Source: Gemmata obscuriglobus
Lineage (GTDB): Bacteria; Planctomycetota; Planctomycetia; Gemmatales; Gemmataceae
Reading direction: 5' to 3'
Assembly: GCF_008065095.1 (NCBI RefSeq)
Contig: NZ_CP042911.1
Coordinates: forward strand, 1,860,001 to 1,892,000
DNA: 32,000 nt
Positions 3,689 to 29,336 of this stretch are shown here, piece after piece; position 1 is the first letter of the stretch, and every line of letters starts with the position of its first letter. The position numbers and the translations under genes were made by a program. The notes under the pieces were generated by a model that saw only the letters and a list, made by a program, of their open reading frames with translations, did no database searches and was not told the DNA's origin.

Positions 3689-4193
3689 CGCACCAGCCCG
3701 AGGAGCCACGCGGTGTCGATGTGCGCTCGCGGGGTGCCGCCGGGGTTCATCGCTCGCCCCTGCTCGTGACGTGTGGAGGCTGCCTTCCCGACTTATACCA
3801 CAGCCGACGCCACAAGGGACACAACGCGAACCTCGAAGCGGCAGAAACGCTCTTCACTCGGGCCAAGAGCGACGATCGCGGGCCGGCGCGAAACGAGACG
3901 GCCGCCGCAGTTCCGAATGGATGAAGAGGTACACCGTGAGTCAGAAGCAGCAGGTCCGAGCGGCGTTTCGTCGCGGCACGTTTACCCGCGACAAGTACCG
4001 GTGTGGAGAAGGTGAAGGTATGCCAGATGGTTACGGTGGCTGGGACGGTAGATCACTACGAGGAATAGAAATTGTACATGTGGGACTGCACCGAGTTGCA
4101 ATTAGCCGATACGTAACCGATTATGTGTGAAAGGAAAAAGATGCCCGCCACCGAGCGAACAACCCAGCGGGGAGCACACCAAGAGGGCTGCCT

Positions 4194-4853
4194 ATGACGT
4201 TGCTAAAACGGTGGTGGGTGATTCCTGTCGTAATCGGGGCAATCGTTACTGGCGGGTTAGTGGCAGCTAAGATTGAGGACGAGAAGAACAAGATTGCCGC
4301 TTACGGTGCCATTGTGGCGACAGTGAGTATTTTGCTGAACGCCGAAAAACACATCCGGGACAGGTTAAAAGAAGATCGTGAGCGTGATCAAAAGGAAGAC
4401 GAGAAGAAGGAGAAGTTAAAGGCAACAGTGCAGTACCGTTGTTTCCATGTAACAACGCCTAATATTGGTGTGGAGTTGTACAATGATGGAAAAACACTGG
4501 TTCCTATAAAGGGCGTCTGGCTGGTCGTGGTGCATGAGGGAGAACTTCAGCCGCAAGCAATGGTTTGCACAGATTTTAAAGAACCGTTTACAAGGTACAC
4601 AGGGGGGGGGGCCATACCTACGCCAGTGACCACGCACGAGAGAACTTACAAGAACCGTATTGACCTTCAGCCCAAAGGACACGCCCGGTTTCACGAGATG
4701 ATTATGGGAGACATCGGGGACAAGGTACTCGGGCTAAAGCCGGAAAACGTGTATATCGTAGTGGAGTCGTTTGCGAATGCTGAACTGGTCAAAATACCTG
4801 GCGAAGAGATTCAGGCAGAAATCAAACGTGCGAAAGAAATGGAACTGCGGTAA
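4194..4853 (+). CDS. Hypothetical membrane protein (2 N-terminal TM helices, charged coiled segment, about 130-aa soluble domain); ORFan in a low-GC islet
   Basis: 219-aa ORF in a region visibly lower in GC than its surroundings. TM segments are 'WWVIPVVIGAIVTGGLVAA' and 'IAAYGAIVATVSILLNA', followed by the KE-rich 'RDRLKEDRERDQKEDEKKEKLK'. I recognise no family. Confidence 0.6.
   Translation: MTLLKRWWVIPVVIGAIVTGGLVAAKIEDEKNKIAAYGAIVATVSILLNAEKHIRDRLKEDRERDQKEDEKKEKLKATVQYRCFHVTTPNIGVELYNDGKTLVPIKGVWLVVVHEGELQPQAMVCTDFKEPFTRYTGGGAIPTPVTTHERTYKNRIDLQPKGHARFHEMIMGDIGDKVLGLKPENVYIVVESFANAELVKIPGEEIQAEIKRAKEMELR
4602..4611 (+). repeat. G10 homopolymer inside the 4194-4853 CDS
   Basis: The sequence reads 'aca ggg ggg ggg gcc' (T-G-G-G-A), with ten consecutive G. 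Confidence 0.95.
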
Positions 4854-5077
4854 ACGAAAGAGCCCGACCAGTTTTCCGGAAACGTTCTGGTGCTGGCAGG
4901 GTTCTTTGCTAATATAGCGGCGCGCAAGATACGCATTGAGGCCCGCGGCCAAGCAGCCATTGCCCGTGATCCCCAGCAGTTTTGCCCTGCGTATCTTTCG
5001 CGCCGCCGTAAGATTTCCAGACCGCCCGGGAAGTTCAAGGGTAATTTGGTTCTTTTGCACACTTGTGTTCGGACGTA

Positions 5078-8517: not shown

Positions 8518-9507
8518 ATGCCCCGCGAATTCGACCTCATCGGCCTCGGCAACTCGCTGGTCGACATCCTTGTGGAACTGAGCGAGGAGGAGTTCGGCCC
8601 GCTCGGGTTCGAGCGGGGCACGATGCGCCTCACCGAGCGCGACGAGCAGCAGAAGCTGCTCGGGGCGTTCCGCCAGCGCGAGCCGCGGCTGGTCAGCGGC
8701 GGGAGCGTCGCGAACTCGGTCATCGCGTGCTCGCAACTGGGCGGGCGGGGCGCGTTCATCGGGTGCGTCGGCGACGACCGGTACGGGCTGCACTACAAGG
8801 AAGAGTTCTCCGAACTCGCCATCGACTTCACCAACCCGCCGCTGGTGGGCGAGACGACCGGCACGTGCGTGAGCATCATCACGCCGGACGCCGAGCGCAC
8901 CATGCGCACCTGCCTGGCGGTGTCGAGCCACCTGGCCGACCGGCACGTCCCGGCCGGCAAGATCGCGGCGAGCGAGTGGCTGTTCGTCGAAGGGTACATC
9001 TTCGCGAACCCGGCGACCGGGCAACTCGCCATCCGCGAGGCCCTTCAGGCCGCCAAGGCGAACGGCACCAAGGTCGCGCTCACCTGCTCGGACGCGTTCG
9101 TCCCGCAGGTGTTCGGGGACGCGTTCCGCGCCGCCCTCGCGCAAAGCGACCTGCTGTTCTGCAACGCCACCGAGGCCGTGGCCGTCGCGGGCGGGGGCGA
9201 CGCGGCGGCGGCGTTCGCGAACCTGAAGGCGCTCGTGCCCAACGCGGTCGTCACCGACGGCCCGAACGGGGCTTTTGTGCGGTACCACGGTGCGGAGTAC
9301 CACGTCCCGGCGTTCCTGTGCCAGCCGGCGGACCTGACCGGAGCTGGCGACATGTTCGCGGGCGCGTTCCTGTACGGGGTCACGCACGGCGTGCCGGCGG
9401 AGACGGCGGCGCGGGCGGCGAACTTCCTGGCCATGAAGGTCATCACCCAGATCGGCGCCCGCCTGCACCAGGGGGCGAAACAGTTCTGGGCGGAAGCGTG
9501 TGTGTAA
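8518..9507 (+). CDS. PfkB-family carbohydrate/adenosine kinase
   Basis: ATG at 8518 has AAGGAG 6 nt upstream. Motifs are 'DLIGLGNSLVDIL', 'GGSVANS' and the C-terminal 'DLTGAGDMFAGAFLYG' (PfkB signature 2). The ORF-track start at 8374 is probably too far upstream. Confidence 0.9.
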   Translation: MPREFDLIGLGNSLVDILVELSEEEFGPLGFERGTMRLTERDEQQKLLGAFRQREPRLVSGGSVANSVIACSQLGGRGAFIGCVGDDRYGLHYKEEFSELAIDFTNPPLVGETTGTCVSIITPDAERTMRTCLAVSSHLADRHVPAGKIAASEWLFVEGYIFANPATGQLAIREALQAAKANGTKVALTCSDAFVPQVFGDAFRAALAQSDLLFCNATEAVAVAGGGDAAAAFANLKALVPNAVVTDGPNGAFVRYHGAEYHVPAFLCQPADLTGAGDMFAGAFLYGVTHGVPAETAARAANFLAMKVITQIGARLHQGAKQFWAEACV

Positions 9508-10566: not shown

Positions 10567-10960
10567 ATGACGGAAGAAAAATGGCTGACGGGCGAAGAGC
10601 CCGAGACGATGTATTGGTTCCTTGAGGACCGAGGCGAGATCAGCATCCGCAAGTTCCGCCTTTTTGGCTGCGAGTGTGTGCGAGATATCTGGGACGACCT
10701 GCCACATGAAGCCCTGCGTCGGGCGGTCGAGACTTGTGAGCGGTTCGCGGACGGACGGGCTACGGTAGAGGAGTTGGAGGTAGCACGTAAGGCCGCCAAC
10801 AGCGTCTACAAGGGTAACGGTGACAGCATCGCCGATCATAGTGCCATCGCTATCACCGAGCTTTGCCATACGATTCCGTCATTCCCAATGGGTGAAGGAT
10901 CGGCAGCCGGCATTTCTGCGGTTGCTGCCGAAGTGAGATTCGATCAGGTTACCCCTATAG
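10567..10960 (+). pseudogene. N-terminal half of a planctomycete/myxobacterial-type hypothetical protein, truncated by the IS insertion
   Basis: ATG at 10567. 'MTEEKWLTGEEPETMYWFLE...IRKFRLFGCECVRDIWDDLPHEALRRAVETCERFADGRATVEELEVARKAA' matches, from memory, the N-terminal pattern of a multi-copy family. The reading frame runs straight into the IS left end. Confidence 0.6.
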
Positions 10961-11020
10961 TGGACCCCGAAAACTGGACCGCCGGTTAAGCTATACCGGA
11001 GGCCCAGGAAAGGGGAACCC

Positions 11021-11308
11021 ATGGCGGGCAAGCGGAAGAGTCACTCGGCGGCGTTCAAGGCCCAGGTCGCGCTGGCGGCCCTCAAGGGCGACAAGACCAT
11101 CAACGAACTGGCGAGTCAGCACGGCGTCCACCCGACCCTGATTCATGGGTGGAAGAAGCAGTTGCTCACCGGGGCCGAGGCCGTGTTCGCCTCGGGGGCG
11201 AAGGGCACCGGCCCCCCGGAAGACAAGACGACCGAGTTGTACGAGCAGATCGGCCGCCTCAAGGTGGAACTCGACTGGGTGAAAAAAAAATCGGCCGCCC
11301 TCGGCTGA
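11021..11308 (+). CDS. IS3-family transposase OrfA (HTH)
   Basis: 'KRKSHSAAFKAQVALAALKGDKTINELASQHGVHPTLIHGWKKQLL' is a typical IS3 OrfA, with a leucine-zipper-like C-terminus. The ORF ends just after the A9 run. Confidence 0.85.
   Translation: MAGKRKSHSAAFKAQVALAALKGDKTINELASQHGVHPTLIHGWKKQLLTGAEAVFASGAKGTGPPEDKTTELYEQIGRLKVELDWVKKKSAALG
11282..11290 (+). promoter_or_regulatory. A9 slippery run at the orfA/orfB junction (recoding site)
   Basis: The sequence is 'gggtg aaaaaaaaa tcgg'. The orfB frame opens at 11283, immediately inside the run. Confidence 0.6.
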
Positions 11309-12149
11309 GGCCAAGCGTGCCCGGATCGAGGCCGAGCACCCGGAGCTGAGCGTCCGGCGCCAGTGCGAGCTGATCGGATTGAACCGCTCGACGGTGTACT
11401 ACGAGCCGACCCCGGAGAGCGCGGAGAACCTGACGCTGATGCGGTTGATCGACGAGCAGTACACGACGTGCCCGTTCTACGGGAGCCGGCGCCTGGCCGC
11501 GTGGCTGGGCACCCAGGGCCACGAGGTGAACCGCAAGCGGGTGCAGCGGCTGTTGCGGATCATGGGGTTGGAGGCCCTGTACCCCAAGCCCAAGCTGTCG
11601 GTCGGGTCCGGGCACAAGGTGTACCCGTACCTGTTGCGGGGCGTGGCCATCGACCGGGTCCATCAGGTGTGGAGCACGGACATCACGTACATCCCGATGC
11701 CCACCGGGTTCATGTACCTGGCCGCAACGATGGACTGGTTCAGCCGGTACGTGGTGGCCTGGCGACTGTCCAACACGTTGGACGGGTCATTCTGCCAGGA
11801 CATGCTGGAGGAGGCCTTGGGCCGGGGCAAGCCGGAGGTGTTCAACACGGACCAGGGAGTCCAGTTCACGGCCGCCGCGTGGGTCGGGCGATTGGAGCGG
11901 GCCGGGGTCGCGGTGAGCATGGACGGGCGGGGCCGGTGCCTGGACAACGTGTTCGTGGAGCGCCTGTGGCGGAGCGTCAAGTACGAGGACGTGTACCTCA
12001 AGGGTTACGAGTCGGTGCCGGCCCTGGAGAGTGGGCTCCGGGCGTACTTCGGGTTCTACAACACCGAGCGGTTACACCAGTCCCTGGACTACCGCACCCC
12101 GGCTCAGGTGTATGGCGTCGGAGCCACGAAGGCCCCGACGAAACAGTAG
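11283..12149 (+). CDS. IS3-family transposase OrfB (DDE/rve integrase core); no ATG of its own
   Basis: The open frame runs from 11283 (the track lists it from TTG 11379). 'HPELSVRRQCELIGLNRSTVYY' is the typical OrfB N-terminus. DDE residues sit in 'VWSTDITYI', 'VFNTDQGVQF' and 'DNVFVERLWRSVKYE'. Confidence 0.85.
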   Translation, partial: KKNRPPSAEAKRARIEAEHPELSVRRQCELIGLNRSTVYYEPTPESAENLTLMRLIDEQYTTCPFYGSRRLAAWLGTQGHEVNRKRVQRLLRIMGLEALYPKPKLSVGSGHKVYPYLLRGVAIDRVHQVWSTDITYIPMPTGFMYLAATMDWFSRYVVAWRLSNTLDGSFCQDMLEEALGRGKPEVFNTDQGVQFTAAAWVGRLERAGVAVSMDGRGRCLDNVFVERLWRSVKYEDVYLKGYESVPALESGLRAYFGFYNTERLHQSLDYRTPAQVYGVGATKAPTKQ

Positions 12150-12188
12150 CGAAGGATAGCAACTTTTTGGTCTAGACAATGGGGTCCA

Positions 12189-12488
12189 CTGTACCCCTGG
12201 CACGTTGCCAGGAGAAAAGCGAAACAGTTGCATTGTCGGCTTCTCCGCGACATCTTCGGAAACCCTTTTCGCCCGGTCACCTTCTCCCCGTCCTGGCGCA
12301 CCGACACCGCCTTATCACTTGCTCAGGGCATGTACGACTCACGCGACTTCGGCGCGATGCCGATCCTCGCGGACGCCCTTCAAGACGCCGGGTGCGACAA
12401 CCACGACATCCTGAGCCACTGCCGCGACCCGAAGGGAGTTCACGTCCGCGGGTGCTGGGTGGTCGATCTCGTCCTGGTGAAAAGCTGA
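12189..12488 (+). pseudogene. C-terminal half of the IS-disrupted gene
   Basis: 'LLRDIFGNPFRPVTFSPSWRTDTALSLAQGMYDSRDFGAMPILADALQDAGCDNHDILSHCRDPKGVHVRGCWVVDLVLVKS' is the conserved C-terminal module of the same family as 10567-10960. The frame is open back to the IS right end and has no credible start. Confidence 0.65.
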
Positions 12489-12553
12489 CCAGTTCCGTAA
12501 TGCTCTCAGAACGGGGGCGGCTGTGAACGAGCGCTTTCCCACGGGCCAAGTTA

Positions 12554-12673
12554 CATCGTGAGTGCGGCGTTCGGGTCGGTGCCGAAGTAGTACAGCTTGC
12601 CGCGAACCTTTTTGGCCCATTGACCGGTCTGGTGGTAGAACAACGGGGAGTCGGGGTACAGCTTTTTCTGCTT
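12554..12673 (-). pseudogene. 40-codon remnant resembling the N-terminus of a planctomycete tyrosine integrase
   Basis: '[40 protein letters not shown]' is bounded by stops on both sides. From memory it matches the '..PLF.H.[11 protein letters not shown].yYFG...dp..AL' integrase N-terminal pattern. Confidence 0.35.
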
Positions 12674-12788
12674 CTACGCCGCGGTGCCCGGTGCGGTTGT
12701 AGTCCGGAGCGTATTCGGTGCCCCGGGTGTAGTGCCATGATAAGGCGATGTCGGAGATGTGTTGAATTCGCCTGGCTTTAAGCCGCTT

Positions 12789-12862
12789 GCGCCCGTAGCT
12801 CAACTGGACAGAGCATCCGCCTTCTAAGCGGAAGCGTGTGGGTTCGACTCCCACCGGGCGTA
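12789..12862 (+). tRNA. tRNA-Arg (anticodon TCT)
   Basis: Hand-folded cloverleaf. Acceptor GCGCCCG/CGGGCGT (G1:U72), D arm GCTC-AACTGGACA-GAGC, anticodon arm TCCGC-CTTCTAA-GCGGA, variable loop AGCGT, T arm GTGGG-TTCGACT-CCCAC, discriminator A. No CCA is encoded. Confidence 0.9.
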
Positions 12863-12874
12863 CTTTCCTCTTCC
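12815..12874 (+). repeat. attL-like copy of a 60-bp perfect direct repeat (tRNA positions 26-73 plus 12 nt)
   Basis: Identical to 31653-31712: atccgccttctaagcggaagcgtgtgggttcgactcccaccgggcgtactttcctcttcc. Confidence 0.9.
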
Positions 12875-12923
12875 CCTCCCGTCTCCTCTCGTTCGTCCTC
12901 TTTGCTTTGTTTTCAAGCATTTT

Positions 12924-12961
12924 GAGCGGCTGAGCGATTTCACTTACTTCCTCAGCCGCTC
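12924..12961 (+). terminator. Hairpin downstream of tRNA-Arg (11-bp stem, 16-nt loop)
   Basis: gagcggctgag...ctcagccgctc. It is homologous in sequence and position to the hairpin after the partial tRNA copy at 31754-31781. Confidence 0.35.
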
Positions 12962-13043
12962 CCGATGGTTTTCGCCCCTTCTCGCCTTCTGCTGCTCCCG
13001 CTGCTGCTCCCTGCTGCTCCCGATGACCGGATGCGCTCGGCCC

Positions 13044-13250
13044 GGGAAGGGCGAAACGAGCCACGGCTGCGGCGGTGTTCTGGAGGTTGACGTGCGCGTA
13101 CCGATCCATCGTCAGCGTAATTGTGGAGTGGCGGGCCAGTTCCTTCGCGTCCTGTGGTGCGACTCCCGCGCTTACCAAGTTGGTAATGAACGTGTGCCGC
13201 AAGGAATGGAAATCGGCTACTTCGTTCTCCCGGTTACGGTAGGCGAGGAA
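13044..13250 (-). pseudogene. Tyrosine recombinase (integrase) C-terminal catalytic fragment
   Basis: 'ADFHSLRHTFITNLVSAGVAPQDAKELARHSTITLTMDRYAHV' carries the box II H-x-x-R ... H ... Y motif. Everything upstream of it is missing. The frame continues without a stop through the antisense tRNA. Confidence 0.65.
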
Positions 13251-13890
13251 ACCGGTTCCGCCCGTCCGGCCCGATCGCCAGCTCGTGCAGCCGCATCTGC
13301 CCGAGCGTGTGCCGCAGTTCCCGGATCGGCCCGACCTCGGCCGGGTGCGCCCTCGCCCGCTCCCGGAACGTCTCGTCGTCGAGCGCCAGGGCGCCGCTCG
13401 GGAGCCGCGGCCACGCGATTCGCTTACGGGACAGGTACGCGGCCCACCGGTCCGCGGAGAACGTGAGCGGGCCGTCCCCGAGCAGCCGGTCCCCGGGGCC
13501 TATGAGGTCGGCGGCCCGGCGGATCACGTCCGGGTGGTGCTTGGGCCGCGGCGCCGGGTCGGGCTCGGCCAGCACCGCCCACAGCTTCGGCGCGTAATCC
13601 GCGTCGACGCCGGCCGGGTCGTACCCCGTCCCGATGCCCAGGTCCGGGAGTTCGCCCGCCAGTTCGCGCGCCCGCACGTCGAGCCCGGGCACGTCCAGGT
13701 GGTCCTTTCCCTCCCCGAGCAGCTTCTGCACCCGGGCCTCGGTCAGCCCGGTGGCCCGGCGCGCGGCCCGGATCGCGGCCAGTCGGTCGGCGGTCGCCTC
13801 GACCTCGAGGCGGTGCAGGTGCCCGGCCCGGTGCTGGGCGATCGCGCTCCTCGGACTGGTCGCGTCCAGTGTGGTCGGCGCGTACTTATA
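13234..13890 (-). pseudogene. Internal fragment of a family-A (PolI-like, phage/plasmid type) DNA polymerase
   Basis: From memory, 'WAAYLSRKRIAWPRLPSGALALDDETFRERARAHPAEVGPIRELRHTLGQMRLHELAIGPDGRNR' matches the region before the '..TGRN.PS' motif of mobile-element PolA proteins. The homology stops abruptly at about 13255, where the integrase fragment starts. Confidence 0.5.
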
Positions 13891-15442: not shown

Positions 15443-16557
15443 TTCTGGTCCCCCTGTTGCGTGAACGCGGCCGCACGGCCGTCCGACCCGACGAGGCGGA
15501 CGAGGAAGTCCCACTTCACCGGGGTGCTCGGCTTGCCGCGCACCTCTTCGGCCTTCGTTTTGGTGAGCTTGACCAGCACCACCGATTCCCCCGCGGGCAG
15601 CTCGACGGTCGCGCGGTACCGGTCCGGGCGGAACATGCTGCGGTACTCGCTCGCTCGCTCAGTCACCTTGTTGCCGTTCACCCAGACCGTGAGGTTGTCG
15701 ACGGCCGACGCCCGCAGTTCGACTTTCGCCGCGGCGGCCAGCTTCACCGTTGCGACGGCGTAAGCGACCGATCCGTCGTCCGGTTTGACGCCGAGCTTCA
15801 CGACATCGAGCCGCGCGTCGGCCGGGTCGTTCGCGGCCGGTTGCCACTTGAGCGTCCCGGCCTTGCCCTCGTAACCGGCCGCGAGGTCGATCTTCGCTTC
15901 CGGCGGGAACCCCTTCGTCAGCCCCTCGTCCGGCGACACCGGGAACGGCCCGACGACGTGCCACCGGCGGACGACGCCGAGGTGCGTGAGTACGTCCGGC
16001 TTGTCGCCGGCCGCGGTCAGCCGCTTCGCCACGAGCAGCGCCTGTTCGAGGTCGGTGGCCGCCGCGAACGTGGCCCGCAGGCTCTTCACCTGCTCCGCGG
16101 GGGCGGTGAGGGCGTCCGCGGCGGCGAGCCGGTCGGCGACCGCGTCCGGGCCGAACTCGGGGTCGCCGAGCCAGCCCGCGAGCCGCTTCGCGGTGGTGCC
16201 GGGTTGGCCCCGCTCGACGGCCGCGAGCGCCACCCGCCGGGCCTTACCGTGCCCCTTCGGATCGGACGCGAACGCGAGCAACTCGTCGGTCGGGAGCTTT
16301 GCGGGGTTCGCTTTGGCGATTTGGTCGAACGCGGTGCGGAGCCAGTTGGCCGCGACCGGGTCGTCGGCGGGCCACGCCTTCAGGAGCGGGAGCAGCGCCG
16401 GCGGCCCGGCCGCGACGACCCGGTCCCACGCGGCGCGGGTGGCCGCCGGGTCGGCGCCCGGCTTCGCGAGTGCCGCGACGTCGTCCGGCAGGGCGGCGCG
16501 CGCCGGCGCGCCGCACAGCAGGAGCAGAATCACACTGGTTCGGTACATGATGGTCAT
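15439..16557 (-). CDS. Secreted hypothetical protein (helical HEAT-like N-terminal half, beta-sandwich C-terminal half)
   Basis: Signal peptide '[18 protein letters not shown]'. The C-terminal 'WHVVGPFP...LKWQP...[11 protein letters not shown]...VVLVKLTK...WDFLVRL' resembles jelly-roll domains common in planctomycetes. There are ATGA overlaps at both ends. Confidence 0.7.
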
Positions 16558-17507
16558 TCCTCGACGTTGGGGAGGCCGTCGGACACGGCCATGAGCCGGT
16601 ACACGGCGTCCATGCTGGCGGACTCGCGGAGGAACCGCACGCTCCCGTCGGCCACGGCGATGTTCGCCCCGCCGCTATGGAAGCTGTACATGTTCACGCC
16701 CGCGTAGTTGGTGCAGTTGATGAGGCAGTTGCCGCCCCGCAGGGTGGCTCCGGTGTTGTCGGTCGGGATCGGGAGCAGCCGCACCCACGCGCCCAGGTGC
16801 CCGAACCCGGCCGCGTTGTTCGGGAACGTCGGGTGCGCGCGCCCGCCGCGGATCAGCCCCTGCCGCCACGCCGAGTTCTCCCCGAACGCGAGCGTGTTGC
16901 TCAGCCCGTCGGTCACGCCCGTCATCGTCACCTTCTCGGCCTGCTGGAGCAGCCCCTTGTCGCGCGGGTCGGACGCGCCCATCGGCGGCCGGGCCACGCT
17001 CAGCACCGGGGCGTACTCGACCAGGCACGCCGGGAACGAGTTGCCGGCCAGCGCGGTCGCGTCCGCCGAGAAGGACGCGGACGGCGGGAGGAACGTCTCC
17101 ACCGGCGCCCCGGTCGAGGACGGGCACTTGTACACCGGGAGCGGGGTCTGGACGAGCGTCCGGTTGGTGCCCTCGGCGTACCCGAGCCCCAGGTTCCACT
17201 GCTTGTACAGGTTGTCCTGTTCGACGTAGGGCAGGATCGCGAGCGTCCACGGCCGCTCGACGAACGTGCGGCCGTCGCTCGGGCGGGTGACGAGCGGGTT
17301 GTTCCGGGGGAACTCGTTGTTGGCGTCGTGGAACCCGTGGAGCGCCAGACCGAGTTGCTTGAGGTTGTTGGAGCACTTCATCCGCGCCGCGGCCTCGCGC
17401 ACCTTCTGGACCGCGGGCAGCAACAGGCCGATGAGGATCGCGATAATGGCGATCACCACCAGCAACTCGATCAGCGTGAAGCCACGGGGGCGATTGGGGT
17501 TCGGCAT
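16554..17507 (-). CDS. DUF1559 / H-X9-DG protein with prepilin-type N-terminal cleavage/methylation domain
   Basis: '[50 protein letters not shown]' at the N-terminus and '[18 protein letters not shown]' (H-x9-DG) at the C-terminus. Confidence 0.9.
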
Positions 17508-17541
17508 CGGTTCTCCATAATGGCAGTGGGGCGTTTGAGGG

Positions 17542-17991
17542 CTACTGGGGGCGCGACGGCCGGGTGACGATCGCGGCCTCGGGGACGGTGATTTCGAACG
17601 GTGGGAGGGCGTTGGCCTTCGGATCGACGCGGACCTTGAACGTGCTCGTCTCGGGCTTCGCGAACTTGCCCCCCAGTTTGTCCCACGCGCCGAGGTCGTT
17701 GCCCGACATCCACTCGAACGTGACCGTGTACTCGCCCGCGACGGCGCCGTCCTTGTCGCCGGTGGTCGATAGGTGAAACGTCCCGGACTCGTCGGTCATG
17801 CCGACCGGCGTTTTCAGGTTCCCGGGCAGCGACTGGTCCGCGTGCCGGAACTGGACGCGGACCAGCGGCGCGGGCTTGCCGTTCACCGTCACGGTCCCGA
17901 TGACAGGAAACTTCTCCGGCCCGGACGACCCGCAGCCGAGAGCGGAACAAGCCCAGACGGCGATCAGAACGTAGGCGAGCCGGACGCGCAT
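17542..17991 (-). CDS. Small lipoprotein with a carboxypeptidase-regulatory-like (Ig-like) domain
   Basis: ATG at 17991. Lipobox 'SALGC', then '[21 protein letters not shown]'. This is the usual partner gene downstream of DUF1559 genes. Confidence 0.75.
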
Positions 17992-18025
17992 GAGGTGCCC
18001 CGTCACTGGATGTTGAAGCGGAACA

Positions 18026-18056
18026 GAACCCGGCGGCCCCGTCGGCCGCCGGGTTC
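18026..18056 (-). terminator. 13-bp-stem hairpin after the DUF1559 gene 18066-18989
   Basis: gaacccggcggcc-ccgtc-ggccgccgggttc. On the minus strand it is followed by a T-containing 'ctgttccgcttc'. Confidence 0.5.
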
Positions 18057-18065
18057 GGACTCGTG

Positions 18066-18989
18066 CTACCAGTTGCCCGGCAGCACCTGCCCGTCGGCCG
18101 GGTTGAGCAGCAACCGCCACGTCGCCTCGGTCACGCCGGTGGACACCATCCGCACGCTCCCGTCGCACAGGCACACCCCGCACCCGCCGTCCTGCATCGC
18201 CTGGGGGCGGAAGAAGTCGCACTGCTGGAGCGTGGGCTTGTTCTGCGGGGGCAACCCGGACCCGTACCCGATGTGCGGCGACGCCGGCGCGTGGATCCCG
18301 AACGAGAAGCTCCACATGTGGATGAACCGGCCCGACTGCACGGCCCCGTTGAACGTCACCGAGCCGTCACCCGGGCACTGCGCGTAGTGCTCCGCGTACA
18401 TGACCGTGTTGGTCGTGCCGTCCGGGATCGAGGCCGTCAGGGTGGCCTTCCCGTCGCACACGGTGTTCACCCCCACCGCGCTGAACCCGCCGTACAGGTA
18501 CGCGGGGTCGGTCGGGTACGCGTACCGGCGGTTGCCGAACACCTGGAAGTTCGGGCCGTAGCTCGCGCCGCCGCCCTTCGTCCCGCCCGCCAGCGTCACG
18601 AACCCGTCCGGACTGGACCGGTCGAGCGGGCTGAAGAACGTCTTGATGAGGAGCTGGTTCAGGACGTAGCTGTTGCCCGCGGCCTGGGCCTGACGGGCCG
18701 CGTTCTCCTGCTCGACGTAGGGCAGGATCGCGTGGTACAGCGAGTAGAACTGGCGCGGGGTCGTGGTCGCGTCGTAGGTGCCCATCGCCGGGAACCGGGT
18801 GCTCGCGTCGTGGTACCCGTGCGTCGCCAGCCCGATCTGCTTCAGGTTGTTCATGCTCTGGGTGCGGGCCGCGGCCTCGCGCACCTTCTGGACCGCGGGG
18901 AGCAGCAGCCCGATGAGGATCGCGATGATCGCGATCACCACCAGCAGCTCGATCAGCGTGAACCCGCGGTGGCGGTCGGGACTCGACAT
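18066..18989 (-). CDS. DUF1559 prepilin-like protein (variant Q-X9-DG)
   Basis: '[50 protein letters not shown]' at the N-terminus. The C-terminal '[17 protein letters not shown]' has Gln where the paralogues have His. Confidence 0.9.
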
Positions 18990-19100
18990 TGCTTCTCCTC
19001 GGAAGGTACGGGTGTTTGGAGCTACTGGTGGCGCGACCGGCCGAGCGCCAATCGCGTCACCCGATTCATTTTATTACCGGGTTATATAATGAATTACTCG

Positions 19101-19129
19101 CGCCCCCGGCGAGACGATCGCCGGGGGCG
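19101..19129 (-). terminator. 12-bp-stem hairpin after the DUF1559 gene 19142-20179
   Basis: cgcccccggcga-gacga-tcgccgggggcg. On the minus strand it is followed by the AT-rich 'gagtaattcattatataac'. Confidence 0.5.
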
Positions 19130-19141
19130 ACCACTTCGCGG

Positions 19142-20179
19142 TCAAAACTCTCCCGGCACCTCACCGCCGGCGCGGGTTGCGAGCGCCCGCCAGGTGTCGA
19201 TCGGGACGGAATCGCGAACGAACCGGACACTCCCGTCGCCCAGGCACACGTTCACCCCGCCCGTGTGGGCGCTCCGGGCGGCGAACCACCCGCGGTTGTG
19301 GGCGAACCCGTCCGGGGTCGCGCTGTTGGGCGGCAGGTAGGCGTTGAACAGCGTGGCGCTCGCCTGCCCCCAGATCCACGGGAACCCGCGGGTGCCGTCC
19401 CAAGAGGTGGCGCCCTGGATGTCGGCCTCGGTGAACATCGGGCTCACCCCGCCGGGGGCTGTCCCGACCCGGCCGCGACCCGCACTCAAGGCGGCGGACA
19501 CGCGGAGCGGCCGCGGCAACCCGGACAGCGGTCCGGTTGCGGCCACCCCGCCGGGGCCGAGCAGCGACTCGGCCAGCAGCATCGTGTTCGACGTGCCGTC
19601 GGTCAGGTCGGTGAACCGCACCTTCGAGTCGAACCAGAACACCCCGTCCGTGGGGAAGGCCGGGTCGTAGTACGCGGAGGTCGAACCGTCGGTCCGCCCG
19701 CTCCCCATGTTCGCCATGTAGCTCGTGCCGGCCAGGCCGGTCCCGAACGACCCGACCGTCCCGGTCGGGGCCTGCCCGTCGCTCGGGCAGAGCAGGAGCG
19801 GCACGACCACCTTGGCCGCCGGGTTGGAGAAGCCGAGCGGGCTGCCGCCGAGGACCGGTTGGGTGAAGTCGATGAGTTTCTGGAGGTTGTCCTGCTCCAC
19901 GAACGGCAGGCACCGGGCCTGGACCGAGAAGGCGTAGGTGCTCGCCATCAGTCCGGCCCCGGCCCCGCCCTGGACACCGGCGGCGGGGAGGCGGCCGTTC
20001 GTGCTCTCGGAGTTGTGTAACGCGAGCCCGAGTTGTTTGAGGTTGTTCTGGCACTTCATGCGGGCCGCCGCTTCGCGCACCTTCTGGACGGCGGGCAGCA
20101 GCAAACCAATTAAGATCGCGATGATCGCGATCACCACCAGTAGCTCGATCAGCGTGAACGCGTTGCGTGGAATCTTCAT
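19142..20179 (-). CDS. DUF1559 / H-X9-DG prepilin-like protein
   Basis: ATG at 20179 gives '[49 protein letters not shown]'. The C-terminus is '[17 protein letters not shown]'. Confidence 0.9.
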
Positions 20180-20255
20180 CAGGGGGCCATGTCCCAAGGG
20201 AGGCGCGCCGGCGGCGCCGGCGCGGGTACGAACACTGCGGGCGACGGGGCTTGGG

Positions 20256-21269
20256 TTACTTGCCCGTTGCGTCGCGGCGGTACTCCATGTAACGGGCGGT
20301 CGTCGCGGCCTCCTCCTTGCCGAGCAACTTTTCGACCACGTGCAGCGCCGCGTCGATCCCGGCCGACACACCGGCGGCGGTCACGACCTTGCCGTTGTCC
20401 ACGAACCGCTTGTTCGCATGAACCTTGACCTTCGTGTACTCCTTCTCGAGCCGTTCGACCGAGGCCCAGTGGGTCGTTGCCTCCTTGCCGTCGAGCAGTC
20501 CGGCCTTACCCAAGATGAACGCTCCGGTGCAAACCGAGAGGGTCACCTCGGCGTCCGCCGCAGCCTTCTTGACCCACTCCACCAGGCGCGGGTCTTTCAG
20601 CGCGTGGCCGGTGTTCCCGCCGGGCAACACGACGATGTCGGGCTTGGGACAGTTGGCGAACGTGTAGTTGGGCGTGACCTTCAGGAAGCCCTGGCTGGTG
20701 ATCGGGCCGGCATCGGCCGCGACGGTGAACACGTTGAACGCCCGGCCCGACTTGGCCGCGGCGAACACCTCCCCCGGGCCAGCGAAGTCGAGCAGTTCCA
20801 CCCCGTCGTGGACGTACACCGCGACGTTCTTGCGCGGCCGGGTGTGCGCGTCGGGCTCCTTGAGGAACCCGGCCCGGCAGTGCTCGCAGAAGAACACGTA
20901 GATCTTCCCCCGATGCACCGCGAAAATGCCCGGGTCGCCTTTGGCGGTCGGCGACACCGCGCAGTGCCCATCGTTCTGAATCTCGAACTTCTCCGGCTCC
21001 TTCTCGAACGCCGCCCGGCCGGCTTCGGTCACGAACCGGTAGCGGAGCCCCTTGCGGACCAGTGCCAGTTTCTCGTCACCCTTGACCTCTTTGCCCTGCA
21101 CGAGTTGCACAGGGTCGAGACCTGTGAGCGCGAGTTCGCCCTCGACCTTGGCGGGCACTTCGGCCGGCGGGTCGGTCGCCGCGGCGCGGCCGGGGGCGAC
21201 CGAATTCGCGGACCAGATGAGGCCCGTCACGAGCAGCACGGACGCGGTTACGATGCGCGAACCGTTCAT
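20256..21269 (-). CDS. Secreted fusion of YHS-like domain(s) with a DJ-1/PfpI (ThiJ) family domain
   Basis: ATG at 21269 has GAGGTGA upstream and is followed by a signal peptide. '[13 protein letters not shown]...[20 protein letters not shown]' and '[21 protein letters not shown]' are YHS-like. 'IVVLPGG...[25 protein letters not shown]' is the DJ-1/PfpI nucleophile elbow. Confidence 0.85.
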
Positions 21270-21309
21270 GGATCACCTCTCAATTCGTGTGTGGGCGAGC
21301 GTTACGGGT

Positions 21310-21753
21310 TCAGTCGATGCGGATCGGCTCCAAGACGTTGTCACCTGCCTTGACCGTGACCTTCCGAACTGGCCGAGTGGGATCGCTGTACCTGCCCTTG
21401 AGGCGGTCCGGTCCGATGTGACTCTTCCCGCCGGGCCAGAAGACGGTCAGGGCGTACTCCCCGGCCGGCGCACCGTCACGCGGGTCGAAGGAGTTGGGCC
21501 GGAACGTACCGTCTGCTTCGACCGTCGCCTGGGGCCTGACGGCGCCAGGGGCCGCGTTTCCAACCGGATGAAATGACACCACGGCACCGACCGCCGGCTT
21601 GCCGTTGACGAGTAACTCCCCGCGAACGGGGTAAACCGGCGGGTGGTCGGGCAGTTTTGCCGTGCAAGCGGCCACGGCCAGTAGCACACACGGCGCGAGA
21701 CATCTCGCCGCGCGGAGGATGTACCGCAGCTTCGGAGTGCGCGTGAGGGTCAT
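21310..21753 (-). CDS. Small lipoprotein with a carboxypeptidase-regulatory-like domain
   Basis: Lipobox 'LAVAAC', then 'YPVRGELLVNGKPAVGAVVSFHP'. It is a paralogue of 17542-17991. Its start overlaps the upstream DUF1559 stop (TGATG). Confidence 0.7.
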   Translation of the reverse strand: MTLTRTPKLRYILRAARCLAPCVLLAVAACTAKLPDHPPVYPVRGELLVNGKPAVGAVVSFHPVGNAAPGAVRPQATVEADGTFRPNSFDPRDGAPAGEYALTVFWPGGKSHIGPDRLKGRYSDPTRPVRKVTVKAGDNVLEPIRID

Positions 21754-22727
21754 CAGTACGTGTCCCCCGCAATGACCTCGCCGCCCGCCTTACTGATGAC
21801 GGCGTACAGGATCTGGCCGCTGAGCGATTCCTTGAGGAAGCGCACGGACCCGTCCAGGAACAGCGCGTTCGCTCCGCCCGTGTGGAAGCCGTAGATGCCA
21901 CTGGAATTGTTGCAGTTCACGGTGCACGGGCCGAACCCGGGCGAAAACGGGGCCTGCCCGTCCGCCGTGTACGGGGTGGCGAAGAAGGCCCCGAAGCCCG
22001 CCCAGGGGGCCAACCAGTCGGTGAACGGGTCCGGGTTGGTGTCGCTCACCTTCCGGCCCTTGATCCACAACTGGGAGCGGGCCGCCTGCTCGGTCACGGT
22101 CATCGTGTTCGAGGTGCCGTCCGTCACCCCGGCCAAGGTCGGCGTCTGGAAGCCCATGATGTCTGCGGTCAGCGGGCAGAGCGCGCCGATGCCGTAGGGG
22201 TCCGAGGCCGGGCCGACCGGCGCGCCGAACGACATGGAGACCATGTAGCTGCCGACCGCCCCGGTGTTGGTCGGGTTCGCGTCCGCCGGCGGCGGACCGC
22301 CCATGACGCCCTGGGTCATCACCCCGACCCGGGTCAGCCGGTCCGGCGAGGACGGGCACTGGTAGGACTTGAGGAACGTGTTGATGACCGGCTGGTTGGC
22401 GTTCGCCCCCCAGTTCTTCGTCCAGTCGTACTGCCTGGCGAGGTGGTCCTGCTCGATGTACGGCAGAATTTTGGTGAAGAAGCTGCCCTCGGTCGGGTCG
22501 CCCGAGTGCTCCGGGCCGTAGGTGGCCTTCGGCAGTTGCTGATTCGCCGTCTCGAAGTTCAGGACGGCGAGGCCGATCTGCTTGAGGTTGTTCGAACAAG
22601 ACATGCGGGCGGCCGCCTCGCGCACCTTCTGCACGGCCGGCAACAGCAGGCCGATCAGGATGGCGATGATCGCGATCACCACCAACAGCTCGATGAGTGT
22701 GAAGCCGGTTCGTCTGGCCTTCGTCAT
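21753..22727 (-). CDS. DUF1559 / H-X9-DG prepilin-like protein
   Basis: ATG at 22727 gives '[50 protein letters not shown]'. The C-terminus is '[18 protein letters not shown]'. Confidence 0.9.
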
Positions 22728-22761
22728 GGGTACTATTCCTTGATGTTGGTGTTCCAGAAGG

Positions 22762-23785
22762 TCAGGCCGCGAGAACGGCGTACATGCCGACTCCGAGGGC
22801 GGTCGCGGCGGCGGCACTGAGGGCGAGGACGAGGCGCCCCGCCTTGCGGGTGGCCTTGATCTGCCACCACATGAGCAGGCCGGATACGCCCCAGAAGCAG
22901 AGGATCAGGGCCATCGCGTCCACGCCCACGGCCCACAGCCACTTCGTCGTGACCTCACCCGGGTAGCCCCGGCTCAGGTGCAGGCGCAGCAGGAAGCCTC
23001 GCGCCGTCAACTCGCTCTGCTCCTGCCCCGCGGCCCCGCTCACGGTCGTGGTGATCGGGTTGTAGGTCGCGGTCCAGAGTTGCCCGTCCGCCTCCACGGG
23101 AAACTTGACGTCCGGCGAGGTCGTCACCGTGACCTCGCCTTTCGGGAATCCCTTCCGCTCCATAATCGTCGGCACGGCGGTCTTGAGCCGCTCGACGATC
23201 GAGTCCTCGACCTTCACGCCGGCGTGGTTCTGCTTCATCGGCCCGCCCATCCCCATCCCGCGCTGTCGCGGGGCGTCTCCGGTCGCCGTGGCGAACGGGG
23301 CTTTCTCGCCCACGGCCCGGGTGGTCGTCTCGCGGATGGTGCCGCTGGCCGTCTTCGGGTCGTACACGACAAAGAAGGTGCGGGCGTCGGCCTTAACGTT
23401 CGCCACGAACGACTCGCGGGTCGCGTAGTGGGCGCTCCCTGTGGCCAGCCTGTATGGTGCGGCGGGTTTCTGCTGGTCGTTCAGCGCGGCCAGTACGGCA
23501 GGTCGCCTGCTCCTGGGGTGTGGGGGCAAACTCAAGCGGGGTGCCGACGACATCGGCCCGGCTGAAGTGCGCGGTCGGGGCGTCCGCGAGTACGGTCGGG
23601 TGGTTGAACAGGAACCCGGTGACGCCGTACAGGATGGCCCACGGGAACAGGAACAGACCGACGTACAGGTGTGTCCGGCGGACCATATGCATGACCCGCC
23701 GCGAGAGTGGTCGGCTCGTCGGCCGCGGGCTCGCGGCGTCGGACGACGGCGTGACGGGCGGGTCGGTAGTTTCCAGGGGGGCCAT
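22762..23785 (-). pseudogene. PepSY-associated TM-helix protein, apparently frameshifted
   Basis: The N-terminal part (ATG 23785, 'RRTHLYVGLFLFPWAILYGVTGFLFNHP') and the C-terminal part ('...FLLRLHLSRGYP...[27 protein letters not shown]') lie in different frames. The switch is near 23500-23512. Confidence 0.7.
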
Positions 23786-23829
23786 GAAGGGTGATCTCGT
23801 CGTGTTGGGTAGTCGGTGTGTGGGGACGA

Positions 23830-23853
23830 GGTCGGCGGGAAGCCCCGCCGACC
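23830..23853 (-). terminator. 10-bp-stem hairpin after the DUF1559 gene 23865-24947
   Basis: ggtcggcggg-aagc-cccgccgacc, 12 nt after the stop. Confidence 0.45.
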
Positions 23854-23864
23854 GACTGTGGACC

Positions 23865-24947
23865 TCAGTTGTCGCTGACGACCTCGCCGCCGCTCCGGCT
23901 GGCGAAGGCCCGCCATGTCGCCAGGGAGATGGAGTCGCGGACGAACCGCACGCTCCCGTCGCAGAAGGCCACGTTCACGCCGCCGGTGTGGTTGCTCCGT
24001 GCGCCGAGAACCCCGTTCCCGCACGTCTGCATGTCGGGGATGGTGCTGTTCGGCGGCAGGTAGTGCTGGTAGGCGGTCCAGTACTCCCGCCCGCTGATCC
24101 ACCCGGCCCCGCGCTGACCGGACCAGCCCCGGTTCAGGGGGCTGGCGAGCGACATGGCGTAGTACCCGTTCGGGTCGTCGGGCAGGACGTACCCGGCGGT
24201 CAGCCCGGCCACGGCCGGCGGCACGGCGGGACTGATCCACGAGCAGGTGATGTTCATCATCACCCGCTTCCGTTCGGCGTCGGTGGTCGGGGCCGGCGGG
24301 GACTGCGCCTGCACCCCGAGTAGGGACTCGCCGAAGGCGGCGGTGTTGCTGGTCCCGTCCGTGATGTCGGTCAGGCGGACGGACGAGTTGTTCCAGGCGA
24401 TCCCGTCCGTGGGGCGGCGGGCGTCGTACAGGGTGCCGACCGCCGTACCGATGTTGACGTGGTAGTTGGTGCCGGCATAGGTGAAGTCCTGCCCGGTCGC
24501 CCCGCCGCTCGCCCCCGAGCGGCTGGTGAACGTGTCCGGGCTGCCGTCGCTCGGGCAGCGGAACAGCGACAGCACGGTGCGGGCGGGGACGACGAATTGC
24601 GGGCGCACGTCGCCGGGGCAGCAGCCGACCGTCAGCGACACGTCGAAGGAGAGCAGGTTCCGCAGGTTGTCCTGCTCGACGTACGGGAGCAGGCGCGCCT
24701 GGACGGAAAAGTTGCCGGCGTTACTCCCGGCGAGACTCGAATACGCGGGCAGCTTCTGCTCGGCACTCTCGAAGTTGTGCATCGCCAGCCCGAGTTGTTT
24801 CATGTTGTTCTGGCACTTCATCCGCGCCGCCGCCTCGCGCACCTTCTGGATGGCCGGCAACAGCAGGCCGATCAGGATGGCGATGATCGCGATCACCACC
24901 AACAGCTCAATCAAGGTAAAGGCGTTACGGGGCGTCACGGCGCGTGC
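23865..24947 (-). CDS. DUF1559 / H-X9-DG prepilin-like protein (putative GTG start)
   Basis: GTG at 24947 gives '(M)[47 protein letters not shown]'. The C-terminus is '[17 protein letters not shown]'. No stop codon separates it from the upstream ORF. Confidence 0.85.
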
Positions 24948-25721
24948 GCCGTTGTGAGGGTCGGTGAAGCCACCCGCGCCGTTGGCATGGTGTGGGCGGG
25001 GCTTAATGGGGAACGGGGCAATCCGCATGGCGATCCGCTTCGAGTACACCGCGACAACGGTCCGACCGAGTCGGGCCGCGACCGCCTCGTCGGTGTCGGT
25101 GCCGAGGAGCATGACGTCCGCGGTCATCCACGGCCGGGGGGCTGTGGCCGGGCGGCGGAACGCCGGGATGTCCCGGCTGCACCGCTGCCACGTGACCGCC
25201 GCGGCGGTGCGCCCTAGTACCGCCGCGACCGCCTCGTCCAGATCGGTCCCGAGCAGTGCCAGTTCGTCGTCCCCCCACTTACGTTTGCCCCACGGTCCGG
25301 TACCCGCGGCCGCCACGGCCGGCGAGCGGCCGGTGCGGGCGCCGGCCCCGACCTTCACACGCGGGCGGCTCTGGAGCGCACGGGTGGCCGGGCTCAGGCG
25401 CTCGGGGCTGCCCACCCCGAACTCCCGCCGCCAGCAGGACACCGGTTTGAGGCTGACCCCGAGCCAGTACGCGACCGCCGCCGCCGCCTCGGTACGGACC
25501 GCCTGCTCCAGGCTGGCATCGACGAGCAGCCCCGGCCGCCCGCGGCCCCCGATCGGCTGGACCCGCGGCCACCGGATCGGGCCGGTGCCCCAACCGGTCA
25601 CCCGGCACCACGCCCGCCGGTACCGGCAGTAGACGCGATCTCCTTCGCGCACGGCCGGCGGTTCGTACCGGCCGACCAGCGGCGGAGCGCCCTCGGGGGC
25701 GTTCTGATGTGGTGTGCTCAC
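24948..25721 (-). CDS. HTH plus 2x SANT/Myb-like repeat protein; the ORF has no stop of its own and runs in frame into the DUF1559 gene
   Basis: GTG at 25721 overlaps the upstream stop (GTGA). There are two repeats, '[32 protein letters not shown]' and '[32 protein letters not shown]'. The N-terminal '[22 protein letters not shown]' is HTH-like. Third codon positions are strongly G/C. Confidence 0.55.
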
Positions 25722-26455
25722 GGCGCCACCGCCTTCCCCGGTGCCGGCAGCCGCTGCTCGCTTAGCGCCAGCTCGTGCAGGAGGGTGGCGGTGTCGGCGA
25801 ACGGCTCGGAGCCGGTGTTCGCCCACCGCACCCGCCGGTCCCGGCCGATCACGAACGTGCCGTGCGCCTGCCACTTCGGCAGGTCACCGGCCGCCGGGCG
25901 GAACACGCCGTACCGGGCCGCGGCGGTCCGGTCGGGGTCGCTCAGCACCGGGAAGTGGAACGCCCCGTACTCGGCGTACCGCTCGCGGGTCTTCGCCGGC
26001 GCGTCCGGGCTCACCGCCACTACCGCGGCGCCCAGCTCGGTGAAGTACCGCAAGTCCTTCTCGATCCCGAACAGTTGGGCCACGCAGTGGTCGCACGAGT
26101 AGCCGTAGTAGAACACCAGCACCACCGGGCCGCGCGCGGCCAGGTCGCCCAGGTCCGTCGGCCGGTCGTCGGTTCCGGTGAGCGCGAACAGCGGGGCGGG
26201 TTGGTTCACGAGCGGGTGGGGCTCGGTCGGCACCGGGGGCTTCGGCGGGGCGGCGAGCAGCGCCTGGAGCGGACCTGACAGCGGCTCGACCTGCTTCGCA
26301 CGCAGGTACTCGGCCGCGTCCCGGGCCACGTTCGGCTCGGGGGCGGGCTCGGAGGGCGGCGCGGCGCGGCCCGCGCACCCGGCGACGAGGGCGGCGCTCA
26401 GGAGCAGGGCCGCACGCCCGGCCGGCGGGGGGGCTTTAATCTGGTTGAGGTTCAC
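25718..26455 (-). CDS. Thioredoxin-fold lipoprotein (AhpC/TSA-redoxin family, CxxC)
   Basis: GTG at 26455 overlaps the upstream stop (GTGA). Lipobox 'LVAGC'. '[18 protein letters not shown]' is the redox-active motif, followed by 'FPVLSDPD'. Confidence 0.8.
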
Positions 26456-28918: not shown

Positions 28919-29336
28919 TCATCCGGTGCACGGCTTGCCGGGCGGCGCGGGTTCCAGTGCGACCAGCACCGGGCGGTGGTCAGACACTAGCCGCCCATCA
29001 ATCACCGCGGCGCTGCGCACTCGGAACCGTTCGGCGGGCCTGAACAGAACGTAATCGATCTGCTACTTTGACTGTACGCCAGAATCGTGAGAAACCGTTG
29101 CCTATCGCGCCGGCCCGTGTCGCGGTGAGCGCGGCAAACGCCTTGCTGTTCGCAGTGCTGTTCAGATCGCTGGCCAAGATCACCGGGCGATCAACGCCGG
29201 CGAATAACTCGTCCCGTTTCGCCGCCCGCCGCCCGCCGCCCGCCGCCCGCCGCCCGCCGCCCGCGGCGATGTGGGCCAGGTGCGTGGCGATGAGTGATAG
29301 GTTGCGACCATCGTTTTTAATATATTTAAACGACAA
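28919..29336 (-). pseudogene. Endonuclease/exonuclease/phosphatase (EEP) family remnant: N-terminus missing, internal stop or frameshift
   Basis: 'LSLIATHLAH...RPVILASDLNS' is in one frame. 'QIDYVLFRPAERFRVRSAAVIDGRLVSDHRPVLVAL' is in another, preceded by TAG at 29063-29065. The ORF begins abruptly at the AT-rich patch. Confidence 0.6.
29221..29262. repeat. (GCCGCCC)x6 heptanucleotide microsatellite
   Basis: Six exact tandem copies, translated in the EEP remnant as AAGGGRRAAGGGRR. Confidence 0.95.

Follow-up and report, generated by a model that had tools for sequence, protein, structure and literature searches.

Integrase genes that read through their own attachment site: a probable decayed relic at tRNA-Arg(TCT) of Gemmata obscuriglobus

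The phage attachment site (attP) of Mx8 lies within the integrase gene (int), and integration creates a new 3' end of the gene, which keeps the catalytic domain and alters the properties of the enzyme (reviewed in PMC6070905 and PMC4383910). The two forms of the integrase (Int) differ in recombination activity or specificity, according to the literature (PMC6070905). In the Mx8 Int sequence, the catalytic tyrosine is found near residue 354 and is followed by approximately 60 amino acids (aa), the core peptide STGLEPV, which is an antisense reading of the tRNA T-loop, and 112 further residues. The Mx8 integrase targets a tRNA gene. In the integration-dependent immunity of mycobacteriophages, attP is located in the repressor gene and integration removes a C-terminal degradation tag, and Tn916 is an integrative element with circularisation-dependent expression across its joint. 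The "suicidal" integrases of the SSV type contain an att site inside the int open reading frame (ORF), which is translated, and are split on integration into two inactive pseudogenes; they are stated to be confined to archaea (PMC7253208, PMC8371274). Here we analyse a 32,000-nucleotide (nt) stretch of Gemmata obscuriglobus (contig NZ_CP042911.1, positions 1,860,001 to 1,892,000; the window), in which an island with a tyrosine integrase remnant occupies a tRNA-Arg gene. The original prediction, made from the sequence alone, held that int reads without a stop into the att core, and that joining the island ends would couple int translationally to four genes of the right arm (genes 1 to 4). We find that the read-through is a trait of an integrase family, and that gene 1 is probably the detached C-terminus of Int.

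The only tRNA called by ARAGORN in the window is an intact tRNA-Arg with anticodon TCT, at 12789-12863 on the plus strand. Part of it is duplicated in an exact direct repeat of 60 bp, at 12815-12874 and 31653-31712 (two matches against none expected), which extends imperfectly to 79 nt with 92% identity. The left copy (attL) comprises the 3' 49 nt of the tRNA and 11 nt of trailer, and the right copy (attR) is a displaced tRNA 3' fragment. The two copies bound an island of 18.8 kb, and all genes between them are encoded on the minus strand. The locus thus has the features of a tRNA-integrating element: an intact tRNA next to int marks one end, and the 3' part of the tRNA recurs as a direct repeat at the opposite end. 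This layout is that of Islander-type islands, with the difference that the usual int of such islands has its own stop and an intergenic attP.

The integrase gene is incomplete. Its minus-strand frame reads FLAYRNRENEVADFHSLRHTF...ARHSTITLTMDRYAHV from approximately 13250, where homology to its relatives starts at the peptide FLAYR, and everything N-terminal of this point is gone. The last 51 codons of the catalytic domain remain (13098-13250, containing HxLRH and ARHSTITLTMDRY) and match PF00589 with an E-value of 8e-8 and 32.7 bits, above the curated cut-off of 27.1. The HxxR motif, the second histidine and the tyrosine that characterize tyrosine recombinases are all present (HSLRHTF, ARHST and DRY, with the Tyr codon at 13100-13098), and the box I arginine is missing. 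The N-terminal DNA-binding domains of a complete protein are also absent; full-length relatives measure at least 485 aa (L012) and 528 aa (L114). Judged against these proteins, the window int is a 5'-truncated pseudogene that has lost its N-terminal three quarters.

Downstream of the tyrosine, a low-complexity linker of 74 codons (12875-13097, minus strand) remains open to the core and also constitutes the P arm of attP; its DNA is homologous to the tails of two relatives (L019 and L093). As predicted, the frame stays free of stops from the Tyr region through the antisense core, read as RPVGVEPTRFRLEGG, and in the integrated state continues through the antisense tRNA 5' half and the upstream DNA (12339-12814), which contribute arbitrary residues, to a stop at 12339. 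The right core is read in the same phase. When the ends are joined, the int ORF crosses the core as ...EGGLPILPTC, seven codons (LPILPTC) and TGA following it at 31630-31652 (stop at 31632-31630). The GTG of a 60-aa ORF (31636) lies four bases ahead of this TGA and overlaps it as GTGTTGA. The sequence agrees with the prediction in all of these points, and a change of the Int C-terminus upon integration follows necessarily from a stop-free frame into the core. The peptide that spans the core depends on the reading, as in the alternatives ...STPGGSRTHTLPLRR... and ...RPVGVEPTRFR.... The open tail of the window alone is not significant, as 12% of mononucleotide shuffles of a 70-codon tail are open.

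The significance of the open tail derives from the family. A protein search with the remnant retrieved many integrases with long C-terminal tails, and the tails of these relatives end in antisense tRNA T-arm peptides (GFEPT, GVEPV, GGIRT, DSNPR and similar). Eighty metagenome loci were picked by two catalytic-domain motifs only, which avoids a bias towards particular tails; one metagenome scan returned more than 550 matching stretches. An antisense tRNA was found within 900 nt of int in 48 non-redundant loci. The int frame is stop-free from five codons after the tyrosine to the tRNA 3' end in 45 of the 48, whereas, of the two control frames on that strand, one is open in 3 loci and the other in none, with averages of 2.9 and 4.5 stops (45/48 versus 3/96; Fisher p=5e-30). 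It is this family-level contrast, not the window by itself, that renders the open tail significant, and a stop-free int frame into the att core is therefore a family trait that extends beyond the window. The case named in advance as contrary to the prediction, an int with its own stop before attP, is represented by just 3 of the 48 relatives. More distant integrases, encoded on viral contigs, mostly have tails of 20-35 aa with their own stop, which makes the read-through a trait of a subfamily and not of all relatives.

The tRNA targets in this family include Arg, Ser, Met, Cys, Lys, Thr, Leu, Tyr, Val and SeC. In all loci examined the core lies downstream of the catalytic tyrosine, by 72-120 codons, and the intervening linker of 70-120 codons evolves fast, contains direct DNA repeats and doubles as the P arm. 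The ratio of nonsynonymous to synonymous changes (pN/pS) is 0.5-1.2 in the tail versus 0.2-0.3 in the catalytic domain, and between L019 and L093 the tails show a difference of 15% despite identical catalytic domains. A tail that is barely constrained as protein and yet remains stop-free suggests that something past the core must be translated. The exact core of the window was found next to int in none of the relatives compared.

Some loci depart from the common layout. The tails of L059, L063 and L070 resemble sense-strand readings of a tRNA. In L108, int lies on the strand of the tRNA itself and reads into the tRNA 5' half in sense (246-300 and 9253-9339); the repeat in this element spans the tRNA 5' half up to the anticodon loop and mirrors the usual 3'-end layout. 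In L018 (5520-6816), a full-length Int stops 4 codons past a partial tRNA core and a different tyrosine recombinase gene follows directly, probably because two elements have inserted in tandem into a single tRNA.

What lies past the core in the window is the 60-aa ORF, gene 1 (31454-31636, minus strand), whose frame is open upstream through the whole core. Its only conserved part is DPELARVVTAWANLPDPIKRAILALV (31490-31567), with the family consensus DPDLAxVVxAWPxLPxPIKxAIxALV, which is conserved in the alignments and is predicted by AlphaFold2 as a two-helix hairpin; in the model, the N-terminal part is disordered and helices encompass residues 25-35 and 39-52, with a predicted local distance difference test score (pLDDT) of about 86. 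At six of six attP-type junctions of relatives, this motif forms the in-frame C-terminal end of Int. One is an intact Int of 528 aa in the interior of a 49-kb viral contig (L114). Another is reconstructed from L108, an integrated element of 9 kb that retains its two att copies; joining its ends yields one ORF terminating in ...DLAQVVERWLGLPEHIKQAIKTLAEK, and the core peptide CARSSTGQSAGLRTRR is common to its Int tail and its left-end ORF. The others are fused Int-core-motif ORFs in L011, L001/P0003, L030 and P0117. In these six the unintegrated int ORF crosses the att core, as it does in Mx8; in 45 of 48 loci the integrated copy extends into the antisense tRNA or across it, which replaces the C-terminal segment and leaves the catalytic domain whole. 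Relics of the attR type in which the frame is open from the core to the motif are found in L002, L010, L098, L100, L127 and the window.

A profile search with the motif matched 1223 proteins. The best 120 of these are 35-125 aa long, and many begin inside a tRNA-derived peptide (MGFEPT..., MGRTGLEP...), as expected from gene callers applied to orphaned ends. Gene 1 is thus described best as the probable C-terminal module of Int; given the in-frame fusion at all six junctions, it is probably no separate overlapping gene. In the part between core and motif, identical GGAGCAGCA-repeat DNA encodes GAAPGAAT in L010 (9430-9460) and SSTGSSNP in P0344, with the same motif downstream; these differing readings indicate that compensated frame changes are tolerated in this second linker.

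Short repeats surround the core on both sides. The window contains six copies of GGAGCAGCA against 0.23 expected, of which five flank the core, all on the int strand: three direct repeats in the Int tail (12990-13020), read as GAAxGAAE, and two in the P' arm within gene 1 (31576-31596), a pair that is also present in L010 and L127. Repeats likewise flank the core in relatives, with six GGCGTACC and two GGTGTACC in L011 and three equivalent GATGTACC in L001. The GGAGCAGCA repeats are probably arm-type Int-binding sites, and the apparent conservation of GAAxGAAE in the tail arises because the DNA repeats encode it. The tail also includes a strong hairpin after the tRNA (12924-12961, plus strand; fold z = -4.2), which is a diverged copy, carried by the element, of the hairpin in the tRNA trailer; that of the host is located at 31753-31781. 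The DNA past both cores is homologous (12875-12961 and 31713-31781) and displays a similar trailer and hairpin, implying that the element carries a diverged tRNA-Arg trailer and terminator that is translated on the opposite strand in the Int tail. As to the proposal that both arms belong to one and the same element, the identical 60-bp core and the presence of GGAGCAGCA on both sides show that the arms are at least of one element type.

The window copy differs from the fused relatives in one respect. In the joined sequence the remnant is in frame 0 and the motif in frame 2, approximately 2 nt apart, and frame 2 has no stop over a stretch that begins 16 codons before the core and ends with gene 1. 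As DNA, the window tail can be aligned with those of L019 and L093, including the three repeats, and is longer by a net 2 nt; the intact integrases of both loci read the core-proximal DNA as EEESTP..SRT, which corresponds to frame 2 of the window. Substitutions between the window and L127/L100 give a pN/pS of 0.2-0.4 in the motif frame and of at least 1.9 in the remnant frame from the core boundary on, values that derive from small counts (12-17 changes). The GTG of the window is GTA in L127, which has instead an ATG five codons upstream that overlaps a TGA at the core edge (ATGA) and is ATT in the window. Inspection by eye of the 45-codon stretch in which both frames are open revealed no canonical heptamer of a -1 slippery site, and we do not invoke programmed frameshifting. 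Most likely, to judge from these alignments, the ancestral element had the usual fused Int, and the stop 7 codons after the core, together with GTGTTGA, is most likely a decay artefact of an indel of about 2 nt in a dead gene. The predicted stop and overlap are real as sequence; as a conserved trait they fail, being confined to the window lineage, with GTA in place of the GTG in L127.

We consider it somewhat more probable than its alternatives together that the island is a decayed relic at tRNA-Arg(TCT) of an element whose int spans attP, that integration detaches the module and that the frame mismatch in the window is a product of decay. In the family, the ORF of the free or attP-type form continues in frame through the core, passes a brief second linker that is the P' arm and holds further repeats, and closes with a conserved two-helix module of about 30 aa. 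Integration severs the linker from the module; Int of the prophage retains its whole catalytic domain and ends in arbitrary residues of antisense-tRNA or host origin, and the module is left orphaned at attR. By analogy with IntP and IntX of Mx8, the two forms of Int may differ in activity or direction, a difference that would either favour integration of free copies or make the prophage more stable. We infer from this analogy that the swap of the Int C-terminus could act as a functional switch. The integration-dependent switch of the original prediction may be retained for the family on the Mx8 analogy, whereas no switch can operate in the window copy, in which int is truncated and the arms are separated by approximately 16 kb of host-like genes. 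A more specific version, which we regard as doubtful, would make the module a built-in directionality device: Int with the module, made by circular copies only, would integrate, and the prophage form would be locked or would need an excision partner; in some lineages, possibly that of the window, the module would be a separate small protein made from the circular form only. If true, the integration state would be written into the integrase itself, without a separate regulator.

Several observations weigh against the decayed-relic explanation, in addition to the small counts behind the frame-specific pN/pS values. A start codon is located at the stop of the other frame in both the window (GTGTTGA) and L127 (ATGA), and the remnant frame is open along the whole tail, yet it is not the motif frame. 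The family uses all three frames relative to the tRNA, which reduces the argument from L019 and L093 to one of parsimony. The Int of L018 ends just past its partial core and is followed by the int of another element. None of the best 120 motif matches is fused to an integrase, all being small ORFs; this is expected if most copies are integrated, and free-standing genes are still compatible with it. The int genes of L001 and L011 are 5'-truncated, and their junctions may be hybrids of tandem arrays and not free attP sites. Finally, the NCBI annotation of Gemmata sp. JC673 lists the 60-aa ORF among its proteins (P0241).

A second explanation, which we judge unlikely, is a split limited to the lineage of the window. 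In this case, fission of a fused ancestor would have produced an Int that ends 7 codons past the core and a 60-aa protein that is translated by termination-reinitiation at GTGTTGA, in the circular form only. The remnant frame is indeed open from the tyrosine to the 7-codon stop, the same TGA and GTG are found in L100 and JC673, and the TGA of L127 at the core edge overlaps an ATG; fusion in some relatives and a split in others would leave Int and module still cooperating. By contrast, the start position is not conserved, given the reciprocal loss of GTG and ATG between the window and L127, and the overlaps weigh little, since A, G or T before TGA always yields a start codon. In a frame without selection, a stop would fall within 8 codons with a probability of roughly 0.3, and the attP-type junctions of relatives are fused in each of the six cases. 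Furthermore, the copies of this lineage that were compared are all relics, with a truncated int in the window, a frameshifted gene 2 in L100 and no int in L127 and JC673, and the proposed five-gene coupling fails at the junction of genes 1 and 2.

Somewhat less probable still are two integrations into the same tRNA, that is, a tandem array with later deletions, whose joined arms would be no real attP and whose frame mismatch would reflect non-identical elements. The island interior is consistent with such a history. At approximately 13250, int is cut and fused to an unrelated ORF fragment (13234-13890, minus strand) that marks a deletion or rearrangement breakpoint at 13234-13260. Between the arms are approximately 16 kb of host-like genes, comprising five DUF1559/N-methyl paralogues and BamB-like, DJ-1/YHS and AhpC genes, with a host-like G+C content at third codon positions (GC3) of about 0.9; these genes may be cargo or a product of rearrangement. 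Tandem or heterologous junctions also occur in relatives (L018), and an element of the IS3 family adjoins the tRNA. On the other hand, the identical 60-bp core and the same GGAGCAGCA repeats on both arms show them to be at least of one element type, and two integrations are compatible with the decayed-relic explanation and not opposed to it. In either case, the truncated int and the 16 kb of host-like DNA imply that the window copy cannot excise by its own enzyme. Very improbable, lastly, is a functionless read-through, in which the true C-terminus of Int would not matter, the open tail would be a by-product of base composition or of the arm sites of attP, and the 60-aa ORF would be an unrelated small gene. 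This view could draw on the open shuffles of the window tail, on the DNA- or RNA-level roles of its repeats and hairpin and on its weak constraint as protein, but composition cannot yield 45/48 against 3/96 on the same strand, the motif is under purifying selection (by pN/pS, with small counts) and it is found repeatedly in frame with Int and core.

With respect to described systems, the integrases form a large, mostly planctomycete family that is a new group of the Mx8 kind, the design itself being already known from Mx8. As with IntP and IntX, a bacterial tyrosine integrase has attP within int, downstream of the tyrosine, and swaps its C-terminus on integration. Unlike Mx8, the family ends in a short conserved two-helix module, shared by more than 1000 database proteins and distinct from the Mx8 tail; its hosts are planctomycetes, and many of its elements are plasmid- or island-type in appearance, unlike phages of the Mx8 kind. 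When phages were searched by tblastn with Int of L012, Mx8 was not among the matches, and a pairwise comparison with Mx8 Int aligned part of the catalytic domain only (E=2e-4), with nothing significant in the tail. At the sequence level, the likeness to Mx8 is therefore one of architecture and not of descent, as no relation was detected beyond the recombinase superfamily. The family shares with the SSV type an att site that is translated as part of the integrase, but its core is positioned at least 72 codons past the tyrosine, so the catalytic domain is undivided and integration does not split it. Mycobacteriophage immunity also links the C-terminus of a phage protein, and with it the behaviour of that protein, to integration, as a switch that senses the integration state; in the present family, however, the affected gene is int and no tag-like ending is evident. 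Literature searches yielded no account of this integrase family in planctomycetes.

The remaining genes of the right arm are gene 2 (329 aa, 30411-31400), gene 3 (107 aa, 30077-30400) and gene 4 (188 aa, 29514-30080), all on the minus strand. Gene 2 belongs to a conserved Gemmataceae family of unknown function, and genes 3 and 4 are of unknown function as well; searches of Pfam, PHROGs and NCBIfam with genes 1 to 4 assigned no family, and a sequence search of the PDB with a gene 2 profile gave nothing useful. The original prediction joined int and genes 1 to 4 into one coupled unit, with TTGA, a 10-nt gap and a GTGA overlap as the junctions within the module. The last two are present, between genes 2 and 3 and between genes 3 and 4, respectively. 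The TTGA exists at 31457-31454 but is not the start of gene 2: the invariant N-terminus of this protein, MGWExRHG..YLYRNRRVNGKPVKEY, begins at ATG 31400, 53 nt past the gene 1 stop, which renders the coupling spurious and breaks the unit at this junction. The gap between genes 1 and 2 measures 55-430 nt in relatives, and the only conserved junctions are the gene 3/gene 4 overlap and the gene 2/gene 3 gap of 10-11 nt. Co-transcription from int across attP is possible. A promoter and terminator scan around attR found none, such a scan being uninformative for planctomycetes.

The suggested check of synteny gave a divided result. An order of int, core and gene 1, in part with gene 2, is found in L011, L001, L030, L114 and L108, whereas gene 2 does not hold its position, being placed directly upstream of int in the intact-looking L012. 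The complete module of core, motif and genes 2 to 4 is also present in L098/L099, L100 and L010; a partial module of genes 2 to 4 occurs in L005 and L014, and gene 2 does not follow the motif in L114, L030, L108 and L001. By these comparisons, genes 2 to 4 are a variable module. The idea that only circular copies allow the genes past the joint to be expressed from the other arm resembles Tn916; there, however, the effect is on transcription with no single ORF across the joint, and genes 2 to 4 are inconsistently placed after attP. An identical gene 2 protein with identical neighbours is encoded on contig ABGO01000007 of assembly GCA_000171775.1, which we take to be Gemmata obscuriglobus strain UQM 2246, and gene 2 is approximately 96% identical in Gemmata algarum JC673. 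The contexts of its homologues in Frigoriglobus tundricola, Gemmata sp. SH-PL17 and GCA_901538265.1 are decayed, with insertion sequence (IS) elements and no cognate int.

Two loci offer hints on gene 2 and on the elements that carry it. In L010 (9575-10000), the motif ORF is separated from gene 2 by a spacer of 430 nt with many short repeats similar to GGGACGAT/GGACGATC and two CCCCTAAAGGAGGGAAAA segments; their resemblance to iterons points to a possible role of the gene 2 protein in replication or regulation. In L012 (2792-7023), a primase-polymerase/helicase fusion of 898 aa precedes the gene 2 homologue that adjoins int, and such elements may replicate as plasmids or phage-like episomes. 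Just past gene 4 in the window, the G+C content dips to 0.55 (29200-29500) in a region with short repeats of the CCGCCCG type (29222-29268). The short-read contigs of the genes 2-4 module in L125 and L126 break at the G+C dip and inside the att core.

Among the other features of the window, the ORF at 13234-13890 is apparently truncated at its C-terminus. It matched no family in Pfam, PHROGs or NCBIfam, gave no useful PDB match and had no tblastn match in phages; a PolA-like label for it was unconfirmed and was dropped. The five paralogues of the interior (16554-25874) combine a prepilin-type N-methylation motif with DUF1559 (PF07596) and are marked by a repeat family of 209 nt (D1). Left of the tRNA are housekeeping genes and the IS3-family element (10960-12200), about 600 nt upstream of the tRNA, with orfA (HTH_Tnp_1, 11021-11308) and orfB (rve, 11379-12149); it is a possible contributor to rearrangements at the tRNA-Arg locus. 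Further to the left, the region 4000-5000 has a low G+C content (0.49-0.51, versus about 0.68), encloses an ORF of 219 aa without a Pfam match (4194-4853) and may be another foreign insert.

Integrases that span attP have been treated as curiosities, represented by Mx8 and SSV; in this planctomycete family they are the rule, across many tRNA targets. For annotation, hundreds of planctomycete "hypothetical proteins" of 35-125 aa are probably orphaned integrase ends, and long "integrase" ORFs that enter tRNA genes are real read-throughs. Such elements would escape island finders that do not allow a coding sequence to overlap a tRNA fragment. The control of integrase activity by the integration state becomes testable in a phylum with few genetic tools, where integrases of this type might find use as vectors, in the way that Mx8 Int is used for myxobacteria.

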